Sequence record: MN850651.1
Reading direction: 5' to 3' (one strand)
Length of the DNA: 64,000 nt
Source of the DNA: Escherichia phage moskry
Part shown: positions 7,993-61,310 of the stretch, in pieces
How positions within the stretch are numbered: position 1 is the first letter of the stretch
Layout: every line of letters begins with the position of its first letter
Position numbers and translations under genes: made by a program
The notes under the pieces: model-generated
What the model was told of the DNA's origin: nothing
The model's input: only the letters and a program-made list of their open reading frames with translations
The model's database searches: none

Positions 7993-8280
7993 TCATTCGA
8001 CAGGATAAATGTCGGAAGACTCTTCAGCCTCAACAGTCCCAAGTTCGTCTTTACCATAGATACCTCTGATGTGTAGTTCACCAAAATAAATGCGGTCACC
8101 TTCTTCAAGATATTCTGCATCTACAGGCGGAATTTCAATAACAACTTCGTCGCATTCTAACCAGCCGTAGTGTGCATCACCAGGATGTTTTACCAATTTA
8201 GCACAATAAACTGATTTACACTTATGATGACCACGAAGATTAGCAATTTTGGATTCTGATACGTCAAATGGATGAATCAT
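7993..8280 (-). CDS. hypothetical protein (95 aa)
   Basis: ORF track; first gene after the rIIB terminator. Confidence 0.4.
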   Translation of the reverse strand: MIHPFDVSESKIANLRGHHKCKSVYCAKLVKHPGDAHYGWLECDEVVIEIPPVDAEYLEEGDRIYFGELHIRGIYGKDELGTVEAEESSDIYPVE

Positions 8281-11704: not shown

Positions 11705-11796
11705 AATATTCTCTTCAGTAGATTCCTAGGGCACTATTACTAAAGACCATATAATTTATCATCTTATGTGTAATAGTGCCTCAGGCTATTCAGGAT

Positions 11797-12897
11797 TTAC
11801 GCTGTGAAGATTTTATCCCACATCGCAACAACTGCATCTCGATTATACTTCTTCCATACTGCTTCAGCACGTTTAACTCGAGCTTCGTATGTGTCAGTGA
11901 ATTCTAATACAGCTTTTGTGTAAAGCGCAACTACTTCTTTCTTAGGAGTAGAGGAATCAATTTCTACACGCACAGTATCTGGGTCGTATTCGAATGTCGC
12001 ATGAGGATAATCCTTAAAAACTAACTGGATTACAGGGACACCTTTAGAGATGGCTTCAATAGAACTATTCTCTACCGTACCTGTGTCAGGACACGTATTA
12101 ATAAGTGCTTTAGCTGTTTTAAGACATTCCATAATTTCACTGTGTGGAGCATCAATAATAACAGGATATTTAGCTGGTGGTGCCCATTTGCTTGGACAAT
12201 AACCAATACCATTTTCGCCTAGTGCTTTAATCGCTTCAAGAGCAACATCAGTACGACGCATTTTAGTGTCATAACGTTGTGCACTAATAATCAGATCAGT
12301 CGCCGGAAGAACTTCAGGTTTCTCATTCAAACAAATAACCGGATAATCTTCGGCTTCAAACAACGGATTTGCTCGCCAATAATCATAATCGATTTTGTCA
12401 GTCAGACCTGAAGTCATATAACAATATTTGCGTTCAAATTCACGGAAGGCTTTAGTAGGAGCATAACTCTTACCGCCATTCTTATGAATTTGAATAGTTT
12501 GGTCCCAAATTTGAACAATGCCACGAGATACCGGTTCAAATGGTGTTGCCATAAAATTCTTGTGAACTTTAGAGAGACCTGCGTCTTTAATTGCCTGAAC
12601 GGTTAGTTTAGTCGGTTCCATAGTAACAACAAAATCGTATTCATGGATGCCGGCTAGTTCAACAATCTTACGAGCCATAGTATAACTCATACCTAGACTG
12701 AATTTAGTCAGATGACCAACAGGATGGTGTGTAACTTTCCAGTCACCAAACGTGTCGTTATCAAAGCCGATATAATCAATATCAGCACCGATGGACACAA
12801 GATATTTCAACACGTTCAAATGAACCGCTTCAAGACCACCTTGTACACGTTCTGGGTTAAATGGGACTGCGCGAGATGGGATAAACATAACTTTCAT
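11797..12897 (-). CDS. putative glycosyltransferase (GT-B-like), candidate DNA sugar transferase
   Basis: 366 aa; C-terminal ..ENSSIEAISKGVPVIQL.. resembles the E-x-G-x-PV(I/V) region of GT-B transferases; sits between rIIA.1 and gene 39 where T4 has gene 60/mobA. Fold assignment is inference only. Confidence 0.45.
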   Translation of the reverse strand: MKVMFIPSRAVPFNPERVQGGLEAVHLNVLKYLVSIGADIDYIGFDNDTFGDWKVTHHPVGHLTKFSLGMSYTMARKIVELAGIHEYDFVVTMEPTKLTVQAIKDAGLSKVHKNFMATPFEPVSRGIVQIWDQTIQIHKNGGKSYAPTKAFREFERKYCYMTSGLTDKIDYDYWRANPLFEAEDYPVICLNEKPEVLPATDLIISAQRYDTKMRRTDVALEAIKALGENGIGYCPSKWAPPAKYPVIIDAPHSEIMECLKTAKALINTCPDTGTVENSSIEAISKGVPVIQLVFKDYPHATFEYDPDTVRVEIDSSTPKKEVVALYTKAVLEFTDTYEARVKRAEAVWKKYNRDAVVAMWDKIFTA

Positions 12898-12923
12898 AAT
12901 TAAGCCTTATTAAAATTAAAATG

Positions 12924-12941
12924 AAGCTCCCGAAGGAGCTT
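12924..12941 (-). terminator. hairpin overlapping the gene 39 stop codon
   Basis: AAGCUCC-CGAA-GGAGCUU stem-loop followed by an AU-rich tract. Confidence 0.45.
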
Positions 12942-14757
12942 AGGACATCCATTCTTTACGAAGTTCTGAATCATCACCCATCAACATTTCAAAGAGTTCT
13001 TTCCAATTTTCAGGAAGTTTAACTACGTCGTACACAGGGTTCTGAATCATTTCACGATATTCTGTCTTTTCAAGGGAGCCCAATCCCTTGATGTATCGAA
13101 TACTATGCTTAGGCAGTGTATCTTTAACTTCTTCATACTCAGCTACAGTATAAAACCATTTTTGAGTTTTGCCAATTTGTGCAATAATTACAGGCGTTTT
13201 AACAAAGCGAATACGTCCTTGTTCAAACAATTCAGGCCAATTACTAAAGAAAGCAAGCAAAGCCGGATAGATACTTCCAAGACCGTCATGATCTGCATCG
13301 GTCATAATTGCAATATTACGATAGTTCGTATTCTCTGCCTTTTCACCAAGAATAAGACCTGTGATAGCACAGATATCGAAGAGCTCTTTGTTCTTCATCA
13401 TATCAGCATATGACATACCCCAGCTATTCATCACCTTACCACGTAATGGGAATCCGCCGTGTAGTTCACGGTCACGAACATCAATGAGATAACCAATTGC
13501 AGAATCACCTTCTGTTAAGAACAATGTCGTATCTGCATCTTTACCACATTGGTTAGCTTTAATATGCTTATGAACCTTAGCTTTAGTTGCCTTTTTAGCT
13601 GCTTTAGTTTCTGCAGCCTTTTCTGCTGCCAATTTACGAGCTAATGCTGCTTCAACAATAGGCATAATCAAGGCTTCGTTTTTAAGAAGTGCCTGAGCAA
13701 TTTTCTTAGCATCTAATTGGATATGATTACGAATATCACCATACGTTGACGTTAAACGTTCTTTAGTCTGAGAATCAAAACGCATGTTGCTCATGTCTCT
13801 AATAAACATCAACATTGTGAGACATTCTTTAACACGAGCTTTAGTGACTTCAATACCCTTATATTTCTTTTTAATACCCGGCAAAAGATGTTCGCAGATA
13901 TCATCCATTACACATTCAACATGATGACCACCATTTTTAGTATGGATGTTATTCACATAAGTTAAATGACGGAAGCCGTCTGGTGATGTTGTGAATGCTA
14001 TAGAGACTTTATCATTTTCTTGAATGATGTTATCTTCGCCAAATTGTTTAGCAAATCGTTTAAAATTACCATCAACCTTTTTACCATTAAATGTGAACTT
14101 GATATCAGGATAAACGACTGCCAATGTTTGAAGTCGGTCTAAAGTAATATCTAAATAAATTTGAGATAAATTATGCTCTTCAAATGAAGAGAAATCAGGA
14201 GTGAAGATTACTTTAGTGCCTTTACCTTTAGATTTCTTAGAAGACCATGATTTGTTTTCCATTCCGTTTGAACAGTTAACAGTGATTTCATTTTCGCCAT
14301 CTGACGTGATGCCTGTAAACAACGTAGAGAAGATATTAGTTAAACTACTCCCGACGCCGTTCATACCACCAGTCTTGCGTTCAGAGTCATCACCAAAGTT
14401 ACCACCGGCCTTTGGAATAGTCCAGGCTGCTACAGGCCCAGGAATTTGTTCACCTGTTTGGTCGGTAACTAAACCTTGAGGAATACCACGTCCATTATCT
14501 TCCACCGAAACTTGATTATTTTTAATTTGCACATCAATTTTATTTGCAAACTTAAATGATGTACGAATAGCTTCATCAACCGAGTTGTCAATAATCTCAT
14601 CGATTAATTTAACCAGACCAGGAACATATTCAACTTGTTGATATTTACCAAACAAAAAACGCTCATGTGCTTCTTTAGCTGAAGAACCAATATACATACC
14701 ACTACGTTTCTTAATATGTTCTACATCTGACAATACCTTAATTTCATTTTTAATCAT
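12940..14757 (-). CDS. 39: DNA topoisomerase II large subunit gp39 (unsplit, GyrB-like ATPase + Toprim)
   Basis: 605 aa single ORF; ..DNSVDEAI.., ..ENEITVNC.., C-terminal Toprim ..IMTDADHDGLGSIYPALL..; includes the region encoded separately by gene 60 in T4. Confidence 0.95.
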   Translation of the reverse strand: MIKNEIKVLSDVEHIKKRSGMYIGSSAKEAHERFLFGKYQQVEYVPGLVKLIDEIIDNSVDEAIRTSFKFANKIDVQIKNNQVSVEDNGRGIPQGLVTDQTGEQIPGPVAAWTIPKAGGNFGDDSERKTGGMNGVGSSLTNIFSTLFTGITSDGENEITVNCSNGMENKSWSSKKSKGKGTKVIFTPDFSSFEEHNLSQIYLDITLDRLQTLAVVYPDIKFTFNGKKVDGNFKRFAKQFGEDNIIQENDKVSIAFTTSPDGFRHLTYVNNIHTKNGGHHVECVMDDICEHLLPGIKKKYKGIEVTKARVKECLTMLMFIRDMSNMRFDSQTKERLTSTYGDIRNHIQLDAKKIAQALLKNEALIMPIVEAALARKLAAEKAAETKAAKKATKAKVHKHIKANQCGKDADTTLFLTEGDSAIGYLIDVRDRELHGGFPLRGKVMNSWGMSYADMMKNKELFDICAITGLILGEKAENTNYRNIAIMTDADHDGLGSIYPALLAFFSNWPELFEQGRIRFVKTPVIIAQIGKTQKWFYTVAEYEEVKDTLPKHSIRYIKGLGSLEKTEYREMIQNPVYDVVKLPENWKELFEMLMGDDSELRKEWMS

Positions 14758-14803
14758 GTTGTCTCCTCGTTATGAAGGTATTCTATCATCCGAAATCTAA
14801 AGC

Positions 14804-14820
14804 AAAAAGGGCCGAAGCCC
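14804..14820 (-). terminator. terminator hairpin after the 14821-15243 gene
   Basis: GGGC-CGAA-GCCC preceded on + strand by an A-run (U-run on - strand). Confidence 0.5.
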
Positions 14821-15243
14821 TTATTTAAATTTAATTTTCTGAAGTGCATCAATTGCAGCCAAACGCCCTTGTTCACTTTTAACTGTAATGACCACATCGC
14901 CTGATACGATCACCGAACCATCAACAAATTCTATAGAGCCTTTTTTGAAATCGACAGCTGTATCTGGTTCCGGAACTTCTTCAAAGAATTTAAATTCTGC
15001 ACCATAAAGCAGAATATCACCTTGCATACTAATGATTGTACGTCCAGGTCCATCGGTTTCAGCGGCAATCATTGAAACACCGTAACCAATCATCTCTTCT
15101 ACAATAAAATCTCTTGATAATAAAACTGTATGCAGAGTAGTGTTAAGACGTTTACCAGTTGTATTAAGAATTCTCAAGAAATTATCTTCTTGACCTTTGA
15201 TAATACGATATTTCTTACCAACTTCAAAACCTTTAAAAGCCAT
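14821..15243 (-). CDS. hypothetical protein (140 aa)
   Basis: ORF track; position corresponds to the 39.x/goF region of T4, identity unverified. Confidence 0.5.
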   Translation of the reverse strand: MAFKGFEVGKKYRIIKGQEDNFLRILNTTGKRLNTTLHTVLLSRDFIVEEMIGYGVSMIAAETDGPGRTIISMQGDILLYGAEFKFFEEVPEPDTAVDFKKGSIEFVDGSVIVSGDVVITVKSEQGRLAAIDALQKIKFK

Positions 15244-15245
15244 AA

Positions 15246-15425
15246 TTAACCCTTCTTAAGTAAGTCGTAAAAACCACCGTTCACATGTTTAGGAGCAGAA
15301 ACCCGACGAGTAGACAGACGATGACATTCAGGGCAAACATCGTTTTCTCGTTCAGAAATTCTTTTAATTTTTTCATATTCATGACCACAATCTTCAGATT
15401 GGCATTTATAGTCGTATAACGGCAT
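15246..15425 (-). CDS. zinc-ribbon protein (FmdB-like, 59 aa)
   Basis: Not in ORF track. [47 protein letters not shown]..; CxxC..CxxC; start overlaps the upstream stop as TAATG. Confidence 0.5.
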   Translation of the reverse strand: MPLYDYKCQSEDCGHEYEKIKRISERENDVCPECHRLSTRRVSAPKHVNGGFYDLLKKG

Positions 15426-15856
15426 TATTGTTCCTTAAAGTGAGCTTTCAACATTTGATACAATGACCATGCCTGGTCATTATTTTCGATAGTAATCGTC
15501 ATCACAGGAAATTCAGACAATTCGTCAAGTTCACCAGAATCTTGCTCTTCAGACGCTTGATATGGATTTCCAACTTCATCAAAAAACTCTGCTTCATTCG
15601 TGGAGAGCCAGATAAAGTTTTCATCAAGGATATCACCGCCTGTTGCGTATCCAACCATGCCAGTAGATGTCACAATTTTAGTAGGACGACCAAGATGGTC
15701 AACATCTAATACTTTAAATGGTTCCATGCCAAGACGTCGTGCATAAATCCCATTATCAGTGTGGTCTTTAATAAACTCTTCTTGGGCACGTTTATCTTTA
15801 AATTGGTACCATGAATTAACGCGGAATTTATTAGCCATTAGTAAGTTTCCTTCCAA
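15425..15856 (-). CDS. hypothetical acidic protein (143 aa)
   Basis: ORF track. Confidence 0.5.
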
Positions 15857-16065
15857 TAAGTTGTACCGTTTTCAGTGATTTCACGGAAGATACCATAGAT
15901 AGGCATTTCATCACCGAGTTTTTCGTAAACGTAAACCACTTCAGTGTAGCATAAAAATTCAGTCCAGTTTTTCTGTACAACAACTAAATCAGGATTAAAC
16001 AGAACATCTTCAAACTCATCGATGTTTGAATCAGTAGTTACGTTTTTAATGATTTGACGTTTCAT
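15838..16065 (-). CDS. hypothetical protein (75 aa; track ORF extends to 16110)
   Basis: The track's 5' extension runs into the promoter; internal Met MKRQIIKNV.. is preceded by SD GAGGAG. Confidence 0.45.
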
Positions 16066-16093
16066 AATATTCTCCTCTTGTTTTGATAGGTCT

Positions 16094-16122
16094 ATAGTAT
16101 CATAGACCATAGTTGTTGTACA
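16094..16122 (-). promoter_or_regulatory. early promoter (TGTACA-N17-TACTAT) with dyad GGUCUAU/AUAGACC
   Basis: Read directly; followed by AGACCTATCAAAAC box. Confidence 0.5.
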
Positions 16123-16647
16123 TCATTTTAGCAAAATAAAATCAACTTGTTCTGCCAATGAACGTCTAAACATTAATTGACAACTTCCGAGGATGAAATC
16201 AGGTGCTTCATAGACCGCGATGTAGTATCCTTTAGCTTTCAAGAGTTCAACATCCACCTGGTCATCAAACCATGCATAAACCGCGTCAACACTTTCAAAT
16301 CCAAAATAGAACTCTTGAGCCCAATCTTCGTTCAATTCAAATGTGTGCTCAATTCTATAGTATCTTAAGATATTTTGTTCAAGGAGTTTGTCTTCATTTA
16401 CTGTAGGACGATTAGGGACATTATAGTTGTCGCCGTGATGGTAGAAGTTACCTGAGAGTATTCCATGTTTATCAAGGAATTCCCATGTTTCTTCAGAGTT
16501 GTCAGTGCCAGACCAACCGTATGGCGAACGAGGTTCTTTATTCCAAGAGGTTTCCCAAATTCTGACGGCTTTACCGTCTTTGATAGCAATTCCTGGTAAT
16601 GATTCACGTTGAGTACAAAAACTACGTTCTACGCGGTAAACTAACAT
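16123..16647 (-). CDS. hypothetical protein (174 aa)
   Basis: ORF track; SD GAGGAG 8 nt before ATG; own promoter. Confidence 0.5.
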   Translation of the reverse strand: MLVYRVERSFCTQRESLPGIAIKDGKAVRIWETSWNKEPRSPYGWSGTDNSEETWEFLDKHGILSGNFYHHGDNYNVPNRPTVNEDKLLEQNILRYYRIEHTFELNEDWAQEFYFGFESVDAVYAWFDDQVDVELLKAKGYYIAVYEAPDFILGSCQLMFRRSLAEQVDFILLK

Positions 16648-16652
16648 ATTAT

Positions 16653-16695
16653 TCTCCTCTGGTTGACATGGTTATAATATCAAAACCAGAGGAGA
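16653..16695 (-). promoter_or_regulatory. 13-bp inverted repeat (UUCUCCUCUGGUU / AACCAGAGGAGAA) able to sequester the SD of the 16647 gene in read-through RNA; promoter -10 lies in the loop
   Basis: Perfect complementarity read in sequence; the 3' arm contains the GAGGAG SD. Confidence 0.5.
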
Positions 16696-16702
16696 AGTAA
16701 AC
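16674..16702 (-). promoter_or_regulatory. early promoter GTTTAC-N17-TATTAT
   Basis: Consensus hexamers; transcripts starting here would lack the 5' arm of the SD-occluding hairpin. Confidence 0.5.
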
Positions 16703-16706
16703 AATT

Positions 16707-17126
16707 TTATGCGAAAGCAGCTGGGCTATATTTTTTAATTTGGAATTCAGGAACTACCATGAACTGACCAGCGAAAACGATGTTATAAAGCTTAACACCA
16801 TCTTCTACCCAACGGTCGCTAATAAATCCGGCGATTTGCTTAGTTTTCCATGGCGTTCCATCAGTTGCCGCAGCAATAGTGAATTCATGGTCTTTTTCAA
16901 CAGAAACTGATCTGCATAGTCCCCATTTGAACGCTTTTTCTTCTGGTTCAATGAACTGGCTTGAGACGTAGCCAATATTACCATTAGCATCACGAACTTT
17001 AACTTGGTTACGACCAAAAACCGGATCACTCACAGAAAGAACTTCAACCAACTTCCCGGCAACTTTAGAGCGAGAAGCAACAGATACATATACGTAATCA
17101 CCTGTAGAGAGATTTACAATATTCAT
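16707..17126 (-). CDS. hypothetical protein, member A of a tandem paralog trio
   Basis: 139 aa; shares N-terminal ..ASRSK.AGKLVEV.. and C-terminal ..GFISD.WVEDG.KLYNIVF.G.F.VV.. with the next gene. Confidence 0.55.
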   Translation of the reverse strand: MNIVNLSTGDYVYVSVASRSKVAGKLVEVLSVSDPVFGRNQVKVRDANGNIGYVSSQFIEPEEKAFKWGLCRSVSVEKDHEFTIAAATDGTPWKTKQIAGFISDRWVEDGVKLYNIVFAGQFMVVPEFQIKKYSPAAFA

Positions 17127-17135
17127 AATAATTCC

Positions 17136-17600
17136 TTAAGCTTTACGAGGAGACACATAGCGAGTGATTTCAGATTCTTTAACAACTCGGAAGTCACCTA
17201 AGAATACGATATTGTATAACTTTTCACCATCTTCAACCCATTGGTCACTAATGAAGCCACACATAGTATCAGTTTTGCTTGGATAACCGTATTCATCGAT
17301 GAAGTCAAATTCTTTATCAGTCTGGAATTCAACGCCTTTGCAAAGGGCCCATTTGAACTGTGTAGTAGGCTCAACTATATCGCTTGAAGCAAAGTGGGCA
17401 CTTACACGAGTTTCCAAGAATTTAGGACTTACATAGGCGAACTGAGTTTCAGTTTTTCCAGAACTAGGAATGATTCGAACTTTAACTTCTTTAATACGGC
17501 CCATGCCATTAGTACGAAGTCCTACTACTTCAACCAGCTTTCCTGCAGCTTTAGAACGAGACGCTGTCGATACACGTTTAATTTCACCAATATTAATCAT
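17136..17600 (-). CDS. hypothetical protein, member B of the tandem paralog trio
   Basis: Track ORF 17136-17663 begins inside the promoter; internal Met MINIGEIKRVSTASRSKAAGKLVEV.. aligns with the N-terminus of member A. Confidence 0.5.
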   Translation of the reverse strand: MINIGEIKRVSTASRSKAAGKLVEVVGLRTNGMGRIKEVKVRIIPSSGKTETQFAYVSPKFLETRVSAHFASSDIVEPTTQFKWALCKGVEFQTDKEFDFIDEYGYPSKTDTMCGFISDQWVEDGEKLYNIVFLGDFRVVKESEITRYVSPRKA

Positions 17601-17630
17601 ATTTTTTCTCTCTTTGTTTAAATTGAATTC

Positions 17631-17660
17631 ATTATACTCCATCCATCCTTGGATGTACAA
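17631..17660 (-). promoter_or_regulatory. early promoter, copy 1 of a repeated about 30-bp module (TGTACA-N17-TATAAT)
   Basis: ATTATACTCCATCCATCCTTGGATGTACAA on + strand. Confidence 0.5.
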
Positions 17661-17662
17661 CA

Positions 17663-18157
17663 TTAATTTAGAATATTAACTACTGCACTACGTGGAACAA
17701 CGCTAAAATCACCGGCATGAACAACGTTCAGAAGTTCAACCCCATCTTCAATCCACTGATCAGTTACCCATCCACTCACTGGACCTGCGAACGGACGACG
17801 AATTGAAACAGCTTTACACAACAAATCAGTAGGCTCAATAGGCTTAATCAGAGTACCGTACATACAAGCGATATCCATATCAATACAGATGTCTTTAACG
17901 GGTTCTACTTCTTCAACCAACAGTTCAAAGTCGGTGCTTGGAAGGGCGGTAGTAGAAATTGTACCATATGAATTTTTAATTTCTAAGAATAACCAAGGGC
18001 CTTCAGCTTGTTTGATGAAGTTAACAATAGTGAAACTATTACCTTGAGTGGCACCTAAAATTTCACAAAACTTTTCATAAGCTCGCACTGAAGCACCATA
18101 CCAGTTGATTTGTTTTTCGTCTTTCAGGATGTAAGTAGCCGTAGTATTGATATTCAT
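17663..18157 (-). CDS. hypothetical protein, member C of the tandem paralog trio
   Basis: 164 aa; C-terminal ..SGWVTDQWIEDGVELLNVVHAGDFSVVP.. related to members A and B. Confidence 0.5.
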   Translation of the reverse strand: MNINTTATYILKDEKQINWYGASVRAYEKFCEILGATQGNSFTIVNFIKQAEGPWLFLEIKNSYGTISTTALPSTDFELLVEEVEPVKDICIDMDIACMYGTLIKPIEPTDLLCKAVSIRRPFAGPVSGWVTDQWIEDGVELLNVVHAGDFSVVPRSAVVNILN

Positions 18158-18188
18158 AATGTTTTTCCTGTTTGGTTAAGATAGAAAG

Positions 18189-18218
18189 ATTATACTCCAA
18201 CCATCCTTGGTTGTAAAC
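18189..18218 (-). promoter_or_regulatory. early promoter, copy 2 of the repeated module (GTTTAC-N18-TATAAT)
   Basis: ATTATACTCCAACCATCCTTGGTTGTAAAC on + strand; nearly identical at about 60265 and 61285. Confidence 0.5.
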
Positions 18219-18223
18219 TGATT

Positions 18224-18901
18224 TTATCGCTGTTTTACACTTAACGGGTCAGGATTCTCAGGGACATCTTCAAGGCCAAGCGCATAACGCTGAGCATATT
18301 TTAACATCAAAATATCTTTAGCACAATCGTGAATACTATCATGGGCAACGAATCCTTTTAGCGTACCCATCGGTAATGGACACATACTTAATCCTCGTGT
18401 CAACGAGTAAGCTTCGATTGCCGTACGAATATCGCGTTGGGCCCAGAATTTAACCGGTTCTAATTTATCAGTATCAATCTCTGGTTCAAGAACACCTTCA
18501 TCACGATAGAGGTCACGAATCAAATCAACCAAGATCGGGAAGTCAAAGCTCATACCACGGCACCACATCTGTGATTTCCATTGGTCAACTTTATTAGCTC
18601 GGCAATAGTCTAAAAAGATTTTAATGCCTTCAAGCGTAGTGACATCATCTTCAGACGGAGCCAGGTTTTTACGCGCTTCAGCCGATTGTTCTTTCCACCA
18701 TTTCATAGTGGATTTAGCGAAAACTCGCTTCCCTTTCTGAGAAGCTAAATTAAATTTAATTCGCTTACCTCGTTGAACAAGTTCTTCAAATGATTCAACA
18801 ACTTCAGGGTCGGAATTATATGCAATAACCGCAAGGTCAATAACAGCCGCTTTTGATGTATTGCCGAATGTTTCAAAATCTATAATAACATCAGTGCTCA
18901 T
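18224..18901 (-). CDS. dexA: exonuclease A (DexA, DEDD-type 3'-5' exonuclease)
   Basis: 225 aa; N-terminal ..VIIDFETFGN.. exonuclease motif; immediately downstream of dda as in T4. Confidence 0.8.
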   Translation of the reverse strand: MSTDVIIDFETFGNTSKAAVIDLAVIAYNSDPEVVESFEELVQRGKRIKFNLASQKGKRVFAKSTMKWWKEQSAEARKNLAPSEDDVTTLEGIKIFLDYCRANKVDQWKSQMWCRGMSFDFPILVDLIRDLYRDEGVLEPEIDTDKLEPVKFWAQRDIRTAIEAYSLTRGLSMCPLPMGTLKGFVAHDSIHDCAKDILMLKYAQRYALGLEDVPENPDPLSVKQR

Positions 18902-18910
18902 AATTTTCTC

Positions 18911-20224
18911 TCAAATAAAATGGACGTCAAACCGGCCACGAGTTGTGCCGACATACAATAACTGTTTAGCTAATTCTGAATCGGCATAATGGATACACGG
19001 TGTATAAACAAAGGCCGTGTCAACAGACATACCCTGGGCCTTATGGAAGGTTGATACTGGTAGTGCCTTCACCTTAGTGAACATACGTTTAGCATCCCAG
19101 AATTCGCTCCATGGAGCTTTACCACCTTTATTCCAGAATTTGTATGTTTCTGCGGTCTTAGCCAAAAACAAATTGAATTTATAAAGCTCTTCTTCAGAAG
19201 AAATAACCTTTATATCTTCTCGGATATATTCTTCATCATCCCCATATGTTTCTACTGTAAGATTCCAGTATCGTATCATATATTCGCCTGAAACGCCACG
19301 TGCTTTAACGAATGTAGACGTTTCTACAGCATCTCGAATACGAACGAATTGCCCGTTATTGAAAAGCATTTCAGTCATATTTTTGCCATCTAGCTTGTAC
19401 GTCTTAGTAAACGGCTCTTGTAGAACAATGACTTCGTCTTTAATAAATGGTTTTTCTGTTTCAAGAAGTTTTCGGCGAATAATTGAATTTAACTTGTCCA
19501 CCGACTTATTTGTGAATGCCATCATTCGATTTTCGAAAAGGTCTTCAGGAGTTTTAACGACGTTAAAATAGTTCGTCATATACGATTTAAGGTCTGTATA
19601 TCCATGAACACCGTGCCCATCAACTACTTTATCGTAAATCCATTTGCCATTACGAATATCGGTCGCAACATCAATAATTGGTGCATTGCTACGTTTAACT
19701 TCTGTAAGGTTGCATTGCACGAAGTCTTTGTGAGTGAAGAAAGGACTTAGATACGCAGTTGATTCGCCTGGGTCTACCGGACGAATCTGGCATCGGTCGC
19801 CGATGCCAATTACTGTACACCATTTAGGGATACTAGCTAACATTATTTTAAACAGAGAACGGTCGCACATTGACGCTTCATCAAATAACAGTACACGACA
19901 CAAGGCTAAGTCGGGAACCTTTTTCTGTTCAAACAATACGTTTTCTTCGTATGTAGTTGGGTTGATTTTAAGAATGCTATGAATAGTCGATGCTTCTTGA
20001 CCAGCAAGTTTGCTTAGAACCTTTTTAGCAGCATGTGTAGGGGCTGCTAAAATAATACCTGATTCTCCGGCAGAAATAAGAGCTTCAACGATGAATCTAG
20101 TAAGGGTTGTTTTACCTGTACCAGCAGGCCCATTAATAGTTACGTGATGTTTCTTTTCTTTAATAGCTTTCATAACAACGTTGAAGGCGTTTTTCTGGCC
20201 TTCAGTCAAATCATCAAATGTCAT
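18911..20224 (-). CDS. dda: Dda DNA helicase (SF1B)
   Basis: 437 aa; MTFDDLTEGQKNAFNVVMKAIKEKKHHVTINGPAGTGKTTLT.. matches T4 Dda from memory; Walker A/B motifs. Confidence 0.95.
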   Translation of the reverse strand: MTFDDLTEGQKNAFNVVMKAIKEKKHHVTINGPAGTGKTTLTRFIVEALISAGESGIILAAPTHAAKKVLSKLAGQEASTIHSILKINPTTYEENVLFEQKKVPDLALCRVLLFDEASMCDRSLFKIMLASIPKWCTVIGIGDRCQIRPVDPGESTAYLSPFFTHKDFVQCNLTEVKRSNAPIIDVATDIRNGKWIYDKVVDGHGVHGYTDLKSYMTNYFNVVKTPEDLFENRMMAFTNKSVDKLNSIIRRKLLETEKPFIKDEVIVLQEPFTKTYKLDGKNMTEMLFNNGQFVRIRDAVETSTFVKARGVSGEYMIRYWNLTVETYGDDEEYIREDIKVISSEEELYKFNLFLAKTAETYKFWNKGGKAPWSEFWDAKRMFTKVKALPVSTFHKAQGMSVDTAFVYTPCIHYADSELAKQLLYVGTTRGRFDVHFI

Positions 20225-20532
20225 CGTAAAGTCCCTGCAATTGGAATACTAACAATACGGCCTGTGTCCAGGATTCGTTGATATAATCTTTGCGTCTCCG
20301 CATCTAGTTTAATGTGTTTCATTTCGAGCTTATTAAACCAGAACTTACGCGGAGTTTCGACCATTCTTAGAACTCCCATTTTTAAATCTGTTTTATACTG
20401 TGTTTTCAAAGTATCGAAAACTTTATCTGCAATATCCTTTCTAAAAAATACTGCAGGACGATGCTCATCAAGTGGAACCGGGACAGTAAATCCTTCCATA
20501 TCTCGATAAACTATTGCATATACATAAACCAT
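20221..20532 (-). CDS. hypothetical protein (dda.1 position)
   Basis: 103-aa ORF whose stop overlaps the dda start. Confidence 0.5.
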   Translation of the reverse strand: MVYVYAIVYRDMEGFTVPVPLDEHRPAVFFRKDIADKVFDTLKTQYKTDLKMGVLRMVETPRKFWFNKLEMKHIKLDAETQRLYQRILDTGRIVSIPIAGTLR

Positions 20533-20534
20533 AA

Positions 20535-21281
20535 TTAACCTTTAATCAGTTGGAATAATGATGCGCTAAGTGGTAAGCCACGTTTCAATTTTAATTTACC
20601 AATGAAACCAATCTTTTCAAAACGTTGCAGACCTTGGATAACTTTATCATATGTATCGAAAAGCGATTCAGCGTCAGTTAATTTAGTTTTAGTTTTCCAG
20701 TCAGAGCCTTTAAGAAGAACATTGAGTTTAGTAAGTTCATGGCCTTCTGCTTGATGTGAGCCATTAATGCGTGCTTTCAAAGCAACAATTCTAAGTTTAG
20801 ATTCGTTAGATAAAGGTTGATTTTTCATCATGTTCGCCATATGCTTAACACGATTTTCACGTTTTGCTCGGATTTTTAAAATAGTACCATAAACCTTTTT
20901 AATTTGGGTCCATTTCTTCTCGTCGAGATTAAGTTTCTCTACTTTACGGACAGAAGGATTAGCAATACGTCTTGCAACAGCGTCACGTTTCTCAATAAGT
21001 TCTTCTAATGTTAAATCAGAACGAGCGGTGTTATATTTTTTCTTAACTGGGATAACATTACCTTTAATGTAGCCTATATCATTATTAAAACGTTCTAAGG
21101 ATAATTTCTCACCTTCAACAGAGTTATTAAAAGATTCACCTGAGTAAGCGCAGACCTTTTGATCAAGAATGTTTTTAAGGTAATTAAAGTCTAAGTTAAA
21201 ATCCTTAGAGCGTCTCTTCGCAGAAGCTCTGGTGTGGTCAAGACGACGATTGATTTTGTTAATTTTATTATTTGATAACAT
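20535..21281 (-). CDS. srd: hypothetical basic protein; Srd-like by position and size
   Basis: 248 aa, lysine/arginine rich; position dda-srd-modA as in T4. Sequence identity not verifiable from memory. Confidence 0.4.
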   Translation of the reverse strand: MLSNNKINKINRRLDHTRASAKRRSKDFNLDFNYLKNILDQKVCAYSGESFNNSVEGEKLSLERFNNDIGYIKGNVIPVKKKYNTARSDLTLEELIEKRDAVARRIANPSVRKVEKLNLDEKKWTQIKKVYGTILKIRAKRENRVKHMANMMKNQPLSNESKLRIVALKARINGSHQAEGHELTKLNVLLKGSDWKTKTKLTDAESLFDTYDKVIQGLQRFEKIGFIGKLKLKRGLPLSASLFQLIKG

Positions 21282-21331
21282 AATATTTTCCTCTGTCTTA
21301 CGGACGTTAAGGTCATTTAGCTGATAAGCTT

Positions 21332-21360
21332 ATAATATCACGCCCTCAGGTAGTGTACAC
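21332..21360 (-). promoter_or_regulatory. early promoter (GTGTAC-N17-TATTAT) upstream of the srd-like gene
   Basis: Read directly. Confidence 0.4.
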
Positions 21361-21434
21361 TCTTTTTTCATAAAATGCTTTAATTTTTTATGTGTTATAA
21401 TGGTTCTGAGTTCCATCCGGTTATTCCAATTCAG

Positions 21435-22043
21435 TCAGTAACTGACAATAGACAGATTCCAGATTGTATAACGTCCATCTTGAATAATAGAATCTACACG
21501 CAGTGTAGTCCCTATAGGGAGCATAAATTCACATTCGTCGGATATAAGTCTAGCATTAGACCGTCTTGTCGCTTCAGGGAAAGCTCCATTGAACTCACAA
21601 GATGGCGCAGCCAGAATCATGTTAAGCATATGTTCACGGAAGTTGAAAGCAAATGGTGCATCTTTGATGCAGAACATATTAAATGTTCCGTAAAAATTAT
21701 ACGAAGCAAAGTTACGTGCTACACCGAACACTGGGCTGAAGCTCATTACTCTGTCAAATTTAATAATACTACCAATGCCTTTATCATCGAGTGTGGCCAT
21801 AGTTTTCTTAGAGATTCCACGATACATTGTCTCAGGAACAGAAGACGTCCAATTTCTACGAACGATTGAACTTAACTCCTGTTGAATACAGTCTGGCTTG
21901 TTTTCCATACACTGCCAAAGGATGCTTTGTTCATTATCGTTGAATTGACTATCAATTTCGTACTGCAATACATCTTGATATTCGGGGTTTTGAGCACGAC
22001 GAACCATTTCTTCAATTTCACACTCGTTATACGGCATAAACAT
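21435..22043 (-). CDS. modA: ADP-ribosyltransferase ModA-like
   Basis: 202 aa; R (..TMYRGIS..), S-x-S (..SFSP..) and E-x-E (..DECEFMLP..) motifs of R-S-E mono-ADP-ribosyltransferases. Confidence 0.7.
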   Translation of the reverse strand: MFMPYNECEIEEMVRRAQNPEYQDVLQYEIDSQFNDNEQSILWQCMENKPDCIQQELSSIVRRNWTSSVPETMYRGISKKTMATLDDKGIGSIIKFDRVMSFSPVFGVARNFASYNFYGTFNMFCIKDAPFAFNFREHMLNMILAAPSCEFNGAFPEATRRSNARLISDECEFMLPIGTTLRVDSIIQDGRYTIWNLSIVSY

Positions 22044-22709: not shown

Positions 22710-22738
22710 ATCATAACACGAGAGGAGGGAATGTAAAC
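22710..22738 (-). promoter_or_regulatory. early promoter GTTTAC-N17-TATGAT for modB
   Basis: Read directly. Confidence 0.5.
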
Positions 22739-29588: not shown

Positions 29589-29906
29589 TTAGATTTCCTC
29601 ACAGAACGCCCATTCAGCATGATAAACTGTAGCGCCTTTAGTATCATTCATTTGAACTACATCTACCGGAGAAATTACTCGATAGAGACGTGGTTCACCT
29701 CCATAAGAGCGTGCTGCTCGTCCTGCATAAATCTTTGCTAAACCGATATCTTCAGTAAAGAATACACGATCCAAGTTTTTCTTACGTCCAGTTTCAGACA
29801 GAACTCCTGTTTCCTCAGGAGGACAAAGCATGTTTTCGATGTTAGCTGAACTACTTGAACCGTGATAAAAAATCTTAAATTCTGCTTTACAATCGATGGT
29901 TTTCAT
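29589..29906 (-). CDS. hypothetical protein (105 aa)
   Basis: ORF track. Confidence 0.5.
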   Translation of the reverse strand: MKTIDCKAEFKIFYHGSSSSANIENMLCPPEETGVLSETGRKKNLDRVFFTEDIGLAKIYAGRAARSYGGEPRLYRVISPVDVVQMNDTKGATVYHAEWAFCEEI

Positions 29907-29932
29907 TTTGTTCTCCAGTAGTTGATAGGTCT

Positions 29933-29960
29933 ATAATAACACAACTACTGGAGAAGTAAA
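29933..29960 (-). promoter_or_regulatory. early promoter GTTTAC-N16/17-TATTAT
   Basis: Read directly; followed by AGACCTATCAAC. Confidence 0.5.
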
Positions 29961-29961
29961 C

Positions 29962-30365: not shown

Positions 30366-30395
30366 ATCATATCATGCCTAGAGGAAGATGTAAAC
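30366..30395 (-). promoter_or_regulatory. early promoter GTTTAC-N18-TATGAT
   Basis: Read directly, between the gene 41 terminator hairpin and the next gene. Confidence 0.5.
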
Positions 30396-52175: not shown

Positions 52176-52238
52176 GATATTTTACTCATTTTAAGACGAT
52201 AGGAAGATAATAACATGTCTTCCTATCGTTGTACATTA

Positions 52239-60295: not shown

Positions 60296-61255
60296 TTATG
60301 ATTTTAATGCATTCATTGCGTTAAAAAGTTTAGAATACTGCAACTGGAGATTCGTTACAACACTTTGAGCATCACGAAGTTTAGCTTGTGCTTTGTCAAG
60401 TTCAACAGACAGTTGGTCCATAGTGGCCTTGATTTGATTATAATGGTAATCTTCGGCCGGAAGAAGGTCATTAGAAACATTTAGTTTTACTGCAGACAGT
60501 TTGCACACATTTGGCAAACCTTTAAACATTGATTTACCCGAAGTAGAATAAGCACTTAGGACTTCGGCCTGTTCAATTGGGGTCCCAGTAAGCGATGCTT
60601 CAAACGTTGCATTTTCCTTTTTAAGATTTTGATAATATTCGGAGTCTTTGTGCCACCATGGCGCAGGAACCTTTTTACCAATAGATACACGAGCCTGGAT
60701 AGCGATATGGCCCTTATTCTTGATAGGGTTGATAATATTAAGCTCACGAGAATAAATTGCTTTAATCTGGTGAATATTATCACCTAAAACTTCCAACGCT
60801 TGGTGGAATACACGAGCAACGTTATCATTCTTAGGTTTATACGTAAGAGTGAACTCATTCTCACTGATAACCATGATTTCCAACTTATCGTAAGTATATT
60901 TCAAATGTTTCATGTTAATTGCTTGAGGATGAATACGAGAAGCAATGGCCATCAGATTGTTAAGGTTATTCCGGAACTGCTTAGCGAAATATTGTCCTTC
61001 ACCGCCAATACAAAAATTACGAAGTTTCTGTTTGGCTAATAAACGGCTGAACTCACCATTTTTAATGAACTCTTTAACGGGTGTGTTAGTAACGCATTCA
61101 AATTGAGTAAACTTACGAGAAGTAATCCCATAATATGAACAGACTTCCTCAATCTCTTCAGGAGTCTTTACAGGCATACGGATAGGATTAGGTCCTGGAG
61201 TATATGCGTTCGAGGTAAATTCTTTGATAAGTTCTTTACGTGTAATAAAAGCCAT
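60296..61255 (-). CDS. hypothetical protein with C-terminal coiled coil (319 aa)
   Basis: ORF track; C-terminal ..LDKAQAKLRDAQSVVTNLQLQYSKLFNAMNALKS. Confidence 0.5.
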   Translation of the reverse strand: MAFITRKELIKEFTSNAYTPGPNPIRMPVKTPEEIEEVCSYYGITSRKFTQFECVTNTPVKEFIKNGEFSRLLAKQKLRNFCIGGEGQYFAKQFRNNLNNLMAIASRIHPQAINMKHLKYTYDKLEIMVISENEFTLTYKPKNDNVARVFHQALEVLGDNIHQIKAIYSRELNIINPIKNKGHIAIQARVSIGKKVPAPWWHKDSEYYQNLKKENATFEASLTGTPIEQAEVLSAYSTSGKSMFKGLPNVCKLSAVKLNVSNDLLPAEDYHYNQIKATMDQLSVELDKAQAKLRDAQSVVTNLQLQYSKLFNAMNALKS

Positions 61256-61281
61256 TTTATATTCCTCATGTTGAAAAATTT

Positions 61282-61310
61282 ATTATACTCCAACCATCCT
61301 TGGTTGTACA
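61282..61310 (-). promoter_or_regulatory. early promoter, copy 4 of the repeated module (TGTACA-N17-TATAAT)
   Basis: ATTATACTCCAACCATCCTTGGTTGTACA. Confidence 0.5.

Follow-up and report, generated by a model that had tools for sequence, protein, structure and literature searches.

The 64,000-nt stretch of Escherichia phage moskry DNA analyzed in this study (MN850651.1; hereafter the window) contained, at positions 16652-16702 of the minus strand, a promoter-early stem-loop (PeSL), a cassette described by Arbiol et al. (2010, PMC2839356) and Comeau et al. (2014, PMC4122927) in T4-type phages. The hairpin of this cassette included the Shine-Dalgarno (SD) sequence of the gene that starts at 16647. 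The reading that we favor, with moderate confidence, is that this PeSL-type cassette, a sigma-70 early promoter with an anti-SD sequence in its spacer, licenses translation of the gene, a homolog of T4 motB.2, from its own promoter only. We infer the transcription start, the read-through RNA, the translation block, the protection from the endoribonuclease RegB and the purpose of the arrangement from structure and precedent.

On the minus strand the element reads GCATAA AATT GTTTAC TTCTCCTCTGGTT TTGATATTATAACCATGTC AACCAGAGGAGAA TAAT ATG. Its -35 hexamer was GTTTAC (16702-16697), which is of the T-even early type, and its -10 hexamer was TATTAT (16679-16674). The spacer between them was exactly 17 bp, as in T-even early promoters, and GTTTAC-N17-TANNNT occurred 7 times in the window vs. 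1.0 expected. The spacer contained the 5' arm of the hairpin, UUCUCCUCUGGUU (16696-16684), an anti-SD sequence, and the -10 hexamer was within the hairpin loop. The 3' arm, AACCAGAGGAGAA (16664-16652), contained the SD, GAGGAG (16659-16654), 6 nt before the ATG at 16647. A repeat search and a separate scan agreed that the arms were 13 nt each, 100% complementary and 19 nt apart. Six extra inner pairs extended the perfect 13-bp stem to about 18 bp, with a folding energy of -23.9 kcal/mol. Thus, the perfect 13-bp inverted repeat around the -10 box and the position of the GAGGAG SD inside the 3' arm, both of which were claimed in the preliminary description, were borne out. Of the interval given there, 16653-16702, the upper end coincided with the G of the -35 hexamer, whereas the lower end missed the last base of the 3' arm, 16652. 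According to the sigma-70 position rule, the predicted +1 ranged from A16669 to G16667, 5-7 nt past the -10 hexamer, and fell in the loop, immediately ahead of the 3' arm. The 5' arm UUCUCCUCUGGUU is present only in RNA begun upstream. In addition, a site similar to the targets of RegB/S1, GGAGAAUAAUA, was found at 16657-16647 and matched the consensus GGAGRAYARAA at 10 of 11 positions.

The probability that the SD is unpaired, as calculated by partition-function folding, was 0.000 in the RNAs begun at 16900, 16760, and 16710 and 0.51 in those begun at 16669 or 16667, the predicted +1. The proposal that read-through transcripts fold and hide the SD was therefore confirmed in silico by all three long RNAs. 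It had also been proposed that RNA from this promoter starts inside the loop and leaves the SD free. The start in the loop was supported by prediction, and the freedom of the SD in part, with about 50% unpaired in silico. Similarly, the folding of long versus short RNA, suggested earlier as a check, gave the expected contrast, but the SD of the short RNA was just half exposed. The SD-hiding logic held in all computational and comparative tests made and is partly supported by them.

The window belongs to a Mosigvirus (an RB69-like T-even phage), and about 1.3 kb at the element were 98-99% identical to many Mosigvirus coliphages. All genes around the hairpin were on the minus strand. By the annotation of PhAPEC2, they included dexA (18901-18224), a MotB.1-like gene (18157-17663), a MotB-like gene (17663-17136) and, immediately upstream of the hairpin, another MotB-like gene (16707-17126), which was also supported by the list of open reading frames, Pfam, and PHROG. 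The 139-aa protein of the latter matched Pfam PF17613 motB (E = 5e-21) and PHROG 1671. Its TAA stop codon, at 16709-16707, was 10 nt ahead of the hairpin, and the intergenic gap to the motB.2 homolog was 59 nt. The three MotB-like paralogs, of 164, 175, and 139 aa, were arranged in tandem at 16707-18157 and had a common C-terminal motif, GFISDxWVEDGxKLYNIVFxGxFxVV. The motB-family genes varied in number and order among Mosigvirus, Tequatrovirus, and Dhakavirus.

The gene downstream of the hairpin (16123-16647), which the preliminary description had called an uncharacterised early gene, proved to be a homolog of T4 motB.2, a gene of unknown function, according to the annotation of PhAPEC2. Its 174-aa protein was 38-39% identical to the MotB.2 proteins of JS98 and T4. 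A Pfam search with this protein gave no match, and PHROG assigned it only to a family of unknown function (PHROG 1106). The next gene was cef-like (15838-16066), and its product starts with MKRQIIKNV. The mechanically assigned start of this open reading frame, 16110, falls within a promoter; the true start is the ATG at 16066, with which the annotation of relatives agrees.

The nearest upstream early promoter that reads into the hairpin was found by sequence scan at 17631-17659 and a further one at 18217-18189, both on the minus strand. A scan of 12000-22000 found no terminator-like site on the minus strand between the promoters at 18217 and 17659 and the start at 16647. Given these upstream promoters and no intervening terminator-like site, read-through across the hairpin is expected. 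A UUCG-type hairpin, AAGGGCTTCGGCCCTT, at 14807-14822 scored as terminator-like on both strands and is probably where the transcription unit begun near dexA ends.

The significance of the 13-bp length by itself was borderline: among 100 dinucleotide-shuffled versions of the window, 6 also contained a perfect inverted repeat with arms of 13 bp or more and a 3-40 nt loop. The folding energy of the 53-nt hairpin, -23.9 kcal/mol, was compared with -7.6 ± 2.7 kcal/mol for shuffled sequences (z = -6.1, 0/200). Moreover, only one perfect repeat of the 64 kb was longer (14 bp, 29911-29955), and its layout was identical. Despite the 6 of 100 shuffles on length, a chance origin is ruled out by position, recurrence, and covariation. 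No Rfam covariance model matched at the hairpin. The search gave a sub-threshold isrD match on the other strand at 16888-16941 (E = 0.3, 19 bits vs. a gathering score of 37).

A locus search with one protein identified only relatives that were 98% identical, and alignment with the MotB.2 proteins of JS98 and T4 extended the comparison to five lineages. Among the motB.2 orthologs of these lineages, which include T4, the protein identities ranged from 31 to 49%, and the SD was in the 3' arm of a hairpin in all of them. The 5' arm was always part of the promoter and preceded the predicted start, and the hairpin sequences differed between lineages, with compensatory changes and with G·U pairs in the sense strand. 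In T4, the hairpin surrounds an early promoter in the gap between dexA and motB.2 (NC_000866, 8162-8224), as found by folding of the orthologs, and consists of UCCUCGGU-UAGUUGUGGU/ACCAUAGCUACUGAGGA (17 bp, z = -6.7). From its map position, the T4 promoter at 8217 may be P8.1, a much-studied early promoter that is named in PMC2988021. The arms of the JS98 hairpin were UUCUCCUCAUG/CAUGAGGAGAA. In the L146/L159 and L147 lineages, the 5' arm was formed by the -10 hexamer and the discriminator region, and the AUG was paired too. Thus, the constant feature of the motB.2 orthologs is an SD predicted to be hidden in read-through RNA. The T4 hairpin had a folding energy of -23.7 kcal/mol in the sense strand vs. 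-12.4 to -14.3 kcal/mol in the antisense strand, and that of L147 -14.8 vs. -7.8 kcal/mol, in both cases through G·U pairs. This strand asymmetry favors RNA in the mRNA sense over a DNA cruciform. The gene upstream of motB.2 was dexA in T4 and JS98 and motB-like in the window; because the upstream gene varies by lineage, the hairpin appears to travel with motB.2.

Similar elements were searched for in IMG/VR. A first scan, for GTTTACTTCTCC-N11-TANNNT, returned matches that were mostly due to chance and from unrelated contigs. For this reason, a second scan also required GGAGAA and an ATG (GTTTAC-TTCTCC...GGAGAA-ATG), and it identified 36 distinct elements. In at least 8 gene contexts, the stem exceeded the fixed 6 bp by 5-10 bp, and these extended stems differed in sequence from context to context. 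Among them were AGTAGTTG/CAACTACT, TCTAGTTG/CAACTAGA, and GGTTTGACAT/ATGTCAAACC, as well as TGTAGATG/CATCTACA ahead of a denV gene and GGTGGTT/AACCACT, which contains a G·U pair. Among 24 non-redundant GTTTAC-TTCTCC...GGAGAA elements, the covariation score was 0.208 vs. 0.087 ± 0.015 for shuffles, none of which (0/500) reached it, and 0.06-0.12 for slid registers. The cells with double changes numbered 41 vs. 22 ± 3.

PeSLs are bounded by an upstream stop codon and by a downstream SD and ATG and consist of a strong sigma-70-type early promoter with a stem-loop; they occur in many copies in plastic regions, grouped among small accessory genes and at the boundaries of indels and replacements, and are recombination sites (PMC2839356; PMC4122927). 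Their promoter consensus in the T4/PST group is TTTACW-N17-TAYWAT (PMC2839356; PMC4122927). The element at 16652-16702 had all of these features. Its promoter, GTTTAC-N17-TATTAT, fits the consensus and lies between two genes of the same strand. It was bounded by the TAA at 16709-16707 and by the SD at 16659-16654 with the ATG at 16647, its stem-loop of about 18 bp and -23.9 kcal/mol is stable, and about 25 such cassettes were found on the minus strand of the window. PeSLs also have an AT-rich tract ahead of the -35 box; upstream of the -35 hexamer at 16702, only AATT followed the stop codon, and the A/T-rich sequence AAATTAAAAAATATAG was within the upstream gene. Five positions of PeSL stem-loops have been published: upstream of the -35 box, over it, between the boxes, over the -10 box, and between the -10 box and +1 (PMC2839356). 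The stem-loop at 16652-16702 overlapped the -10 box, which is a described class, but its 3' arm passed the predicted +1 and covered the SD, which is not. The preliminary description was supported in its hairpin mechanism and overlooked the identity of the element as a repeated, recombining PeSL cassette.

The next PeSL (16067-16122, minus strand; TGTACA-N17-TACTAT) preceded the cef-like gene. Its hairpin, GGTCTAT/ATAGACC, surrounded the -10 box, and its SD, AGAGGAGAA, stayed free. In phage ST2 (GenBank OM982647), which has the same upstream gene and lacks the motB.2 cassette, the gap at 1395-1456 was an exact chimera, of which the first 20 nt were those of the PeSL at 16702 and the last 41 nt those of the PeSL at 16122. 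F2 had the same arrangement as ST2. By its sequence, the ST2 gap is a textbook footprint of PeSL-PeSL excision or insertion. Homology with RB3-type phages also ended at 16702, and in T4 and JS98 motB.2 with its hairpin directly followed dexA. The ST2 record is labelled Guernseyvirinae/Kagunavirus, yet contains a T4-like genome of 171 kb, and the label is probably wrong.

Promoter-associated hairpins were present in most of the minus-strand promoter-SD-ATG cassettes, of which the window had about 25. Pairing of -12 kcal/mol or stronger between a cassette's own promoter and its own translation start was found in 4 of the 25 vs. 3% of cross-pairings (permutation p = 0.004). These four were the cassettes at 16701, 29960, 22737, and 30394 on the minus strand; two are strong cases and two are moderate ones. 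In the remaining cassettes, the hairpin stopped before the SD or was inside the spacer. SD masking as the role of all PeSLs is thus ruled out, and, given how few cassettes show the pairing, SD masking appears to be a gene-specific option.

The second strong case was at 29907-29961 (minus strand), where a repeat scan and folding identified a promoter inside a perfect 14-bp stem. From 5' to 3', it consisted of GTTTAC, UUCUCCAGUAGUUG (29955-29942), TATTAT in the loop (29938-29933), CAACUACUGGAGAA (29924-29911), caaa, and the ATG at 29906. Its middle stem differed from that of the hairpin at 16652-16696 on both sides. The SD hidden by this stem, GGAGAACAAAA, belongs to a 105-aa gene (PHROG 2110, unknown function) two small genes downstream of the gene 41 helicase, and it agreed with the RegB/S1 consensus in all 11 positions. 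The Dhakavirus ortholog of the 105-aa gene had a stem of 6 bp only, and the stems of the orthologs of two further genes were short as well. The weaker cases, both on the minus strand, were at 30366-30394 (UUCCUCU/AGAGGAA, -12.8 kcal/mol) and 22710-22737 (CCUCC/GGAGG, -13.3 kcal/mol), and in full-length folds their SDs were masked only in part.

Additional promoter-associated structures were observed in the window. [quoted passage not shown] At 61253-61310 (minus strand), a helix of AUUUUUCA/UGAGGAAU with two U·G pairs gave an SD unpaired with a probability of 0.01 in long vs. 0.61 in short RNA. As the 5' arm of this helix straddles the predicted +1, the outcome hinges on where exactly transcription starts. 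The third-longest perfect inverted repeat of the window was a 12-bp palindrome at 52196-52229, ACGATAGGAAGA...TCTTCCTATCGT, with a loop of 10 nt, which overlapped the -10 box of the early promoter at 52235. Finally, a perfect 11-bp inverted repeat with a 29-nt loop was found at 11730-11780, in the gap between a 366-aa and a 66-aa open reading frame and upstream of a 737-aa one, where no early-promoter consensus was seen.

With these results, the following sequence of events can be proposed for motB.2. RNA polymerase from the upstream promoters at 17659 and 18217 would copy both arms, and the nascent read-through RNA would fold into the hairpin (about 18 bp, -24 kcal/mol) and bury the SD and the GGAG of the RegB site. 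A ribosome that ends translation of the upstream gene would halt 10 nt short of the stem and be unable to open it. Given the geometry of ribosomes and the stop codon 10 nt from the stem, the stem should stay closed. In read-through RNA, motB.2 would be untranslated and probably spared from RegB cleavage, and this RNA may become prone to Rho-dependent polarity. RNA from the cassette's own promoter would start in the loop without the 5' arm and, with a leader of about 20 nt and a free SD, would be translated at once. Being open to RegB, it would be translated and then inactivated. Against this scheme, the kinetics of nascent RNA, on which RegB may act before folding, could also let some ribosomes load. 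The net effect would be a brief immediate-early burst of MotB.2, with read-through or later transcripts silent. The cassette would also be insulated from its upstream context, which would suit its shuffling among genomic contexts.

Other explanations have to be weighed against this one. First, the selected role may be RNA protection, in which the hairpin shields its transcripts from RegB and/or stabilizes the 3' end of the upstream message, the lost translation of motB.2 being a side effect. Long polycistronic transcripts would then persist for the expression of cef, goF, and topoisomerase. The same hairpin necessarily shields the GGAG, for RegB needs a single strand; the motB.2 SD and that of the sibling at 29911 matched GGAGRAYARAA at 10 and 11 of 11 positions, respectively, and the T4 motB.2 SD is an in vivo RegB site (PMC1702504). 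Many RegB-like SDs in the window were left unsequestered, however, and a simpler route to protection would be an altered A-rich tail, as in T4 denV. As the main explanation, RNA protection is unlikely. The two explanations are not exclusive, as both follow from the same structure.

Somewhat less likely still is that the hairpin is chiefly a terminator or attenuator, as proposed for published PeSLs, which would halt or reduce the polymerases from upstream and leave the cassette to its own promoter, and that SD masking is incidental. The stem-loop of RB49 PeSL211/210, placed between promoter and lacZ in a transcriptional fusion, cut expression as much as rrnB T1 (PMC2839356), which points to termination or attenuation and not to a block of translation, and the hairpin of this study is also strong (-24 kcal/mol). 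The sequence after its stem (UAAUAUGUUAG; UAAUAUG) is, however, not a U-tract; the terminator scan of 12000-22000 made no call here, and an intrinsic terminator is ruled out on sequence by the lack of a U-run. Moreover, termination does not call for an SD in the 3' arm, yet the 3' arm was the SD in all five motB.2 lineages though the 5' arm moved from the spacer to the -10 box and discriminator. Other PeSL hairpins of the window stopped before the SD; as hairpin placement is thus free, the inclusion of the SD looks specific. Rho-dependent polarity is possible as a consequence of the translation block.

A role without any RNA function, that is, a DNA-level repeat with homology for PeSL-PeSL recombination or a by-product of templated (strand-switch) quasi-palindrome mutation, in which the pyrimidine run of the spacer pairs with any strong SD by accident, is improbable: the element is exactly at a recombination junction, as seen from the ST2 chimera and the end of RB3 homology at 16702, and the 5' half GTTTACTTCTCC recurs at many loci, but the middle of the stem covaried across different genes above all shuffles and slid registers, G·U pairs stabilized the sense over the antisense strand in T4 and L147, and the 5' arm was relocated within the promoter in two lineages and still paired with the SD. 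Such templated mutation of quasi-palindromes is well known from T4, and a 19-nt loop is unfavorable for cruciform extrusion.

We more tentatively suggest, and with distinctly less confidence than for motB.2 itself, that a subset of the mobile promoter cassettes of T-even phages has a built-in switch for translation only from the cassette's own promoter and that the hairpin also sets which class of transcript is destroyed by RegB. If so, each shuffled gene would receive a self-contained, context-independent window of immediate-early expression, and a level of early-gene control would have been overlooked, even in T4 for motB.2 and in some relatives for denV. This would provide a mechanism for the PeSL stem-loops without terminator features and would link PeSL shuffling, translation initiation, and mRNA inactivation by RegB in one 50-nt element. 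For annotation and phage engineering, it would mean that a gene with a perfect SD in a T-even operon may stay silent on polycistronic RNA.

The published stem-loops of PeSLs all end ahead of the transcription start and have been read as terminators or attenuators (PMC2839356; PMC4122927). Different from them, the 3' arm at 16652-16702 is the SD in the transcribed leader, no U-tract follows, and the predicted effect is translational, with a RegB-related discrimination between transcripts. The combination of an early promoter with an SD-hiding PeSL hairpin appears undescribed in the literature within reach; no genome-wide transcription start maps for T4 were found in the literature searched.

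RegB/S1 targets follow the consensus GGAGRAYARAA, and RegB needs its target single-stranded, structure in the RNA being inhibitory (Durand et al. 2006, PMC1702504). In vivo, RegB cleavage has been mapped to the T4 motB.2 SD, which is one of just two GGAU sites that are cut (PMC1702504). Since RegB cuts there in vivo and structure blocks it, at least part of the T4 motB.2 mRNA should have a free SD. Durand et al. also suggested that RegB may cut nascent RNA before structure forms (PMC1702504). Similar to these sites, GGAGAAUAAUA has a GGAG that is followed by an A-rich, C-free tail. It is predicted to be single-stranded only in the promoter-proximal RNA, its GGAG being base-paired only in read-through RNA. 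Different from the described sites, it would be exposed or hidden depending on which promoter made the RNA.

In the free-standing homing endonuclease genes mobE of Aeh1 and segB of T4, an intramolecular helix likewise sequesters the ribosome-binding site and lowers translation of a gene that is read through from upstream (cited in PMC3014915). As described in that review, they are without a nested promoter that removes the 5' arm, unlike the element at 16652-16702.

The closest analogs are the T4 genes e, soc, 49, and I-TevI, in which the SD and/or AUG are in a helix in RNA from a distal promoter, and a proximal promoter within the DNA of the 5' strand gives RNA that is without this strand and translatable (PMC3014915). 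These proximal promoters are late (TATAAATA, gp55-dependent) and delay translation to late infection; in gene e, masking of the SD lowers lysozyme synthesis 100-fold (PMC3014915). Similarly, at 16652-16702 the SD was sequestered in long RNA in silico, the 5' arm was in the promoter spacer, and the predicted +1 was in the loop. No late promoter TATAAATA was found at this element, which has -35 and -10 boxes of the early type instead. The earlier view that this is the promoter-dependent translational control described for some T4 genes was therefore correct in its hairpin logic and not in its class of precedent, whose promoters are late. Because its promoter is early, the element is a functional analog and not a member of the T4 late-switch set, and the logic of timing would be reversed, with translation only while the early promoter fires. 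Confining early genes to a burst and insulating portable cassettes would then be a third use of the promoter-in-hairpin device, which here, different from e, soc, 49, and I-TevI, belongs to a mobile cassette.
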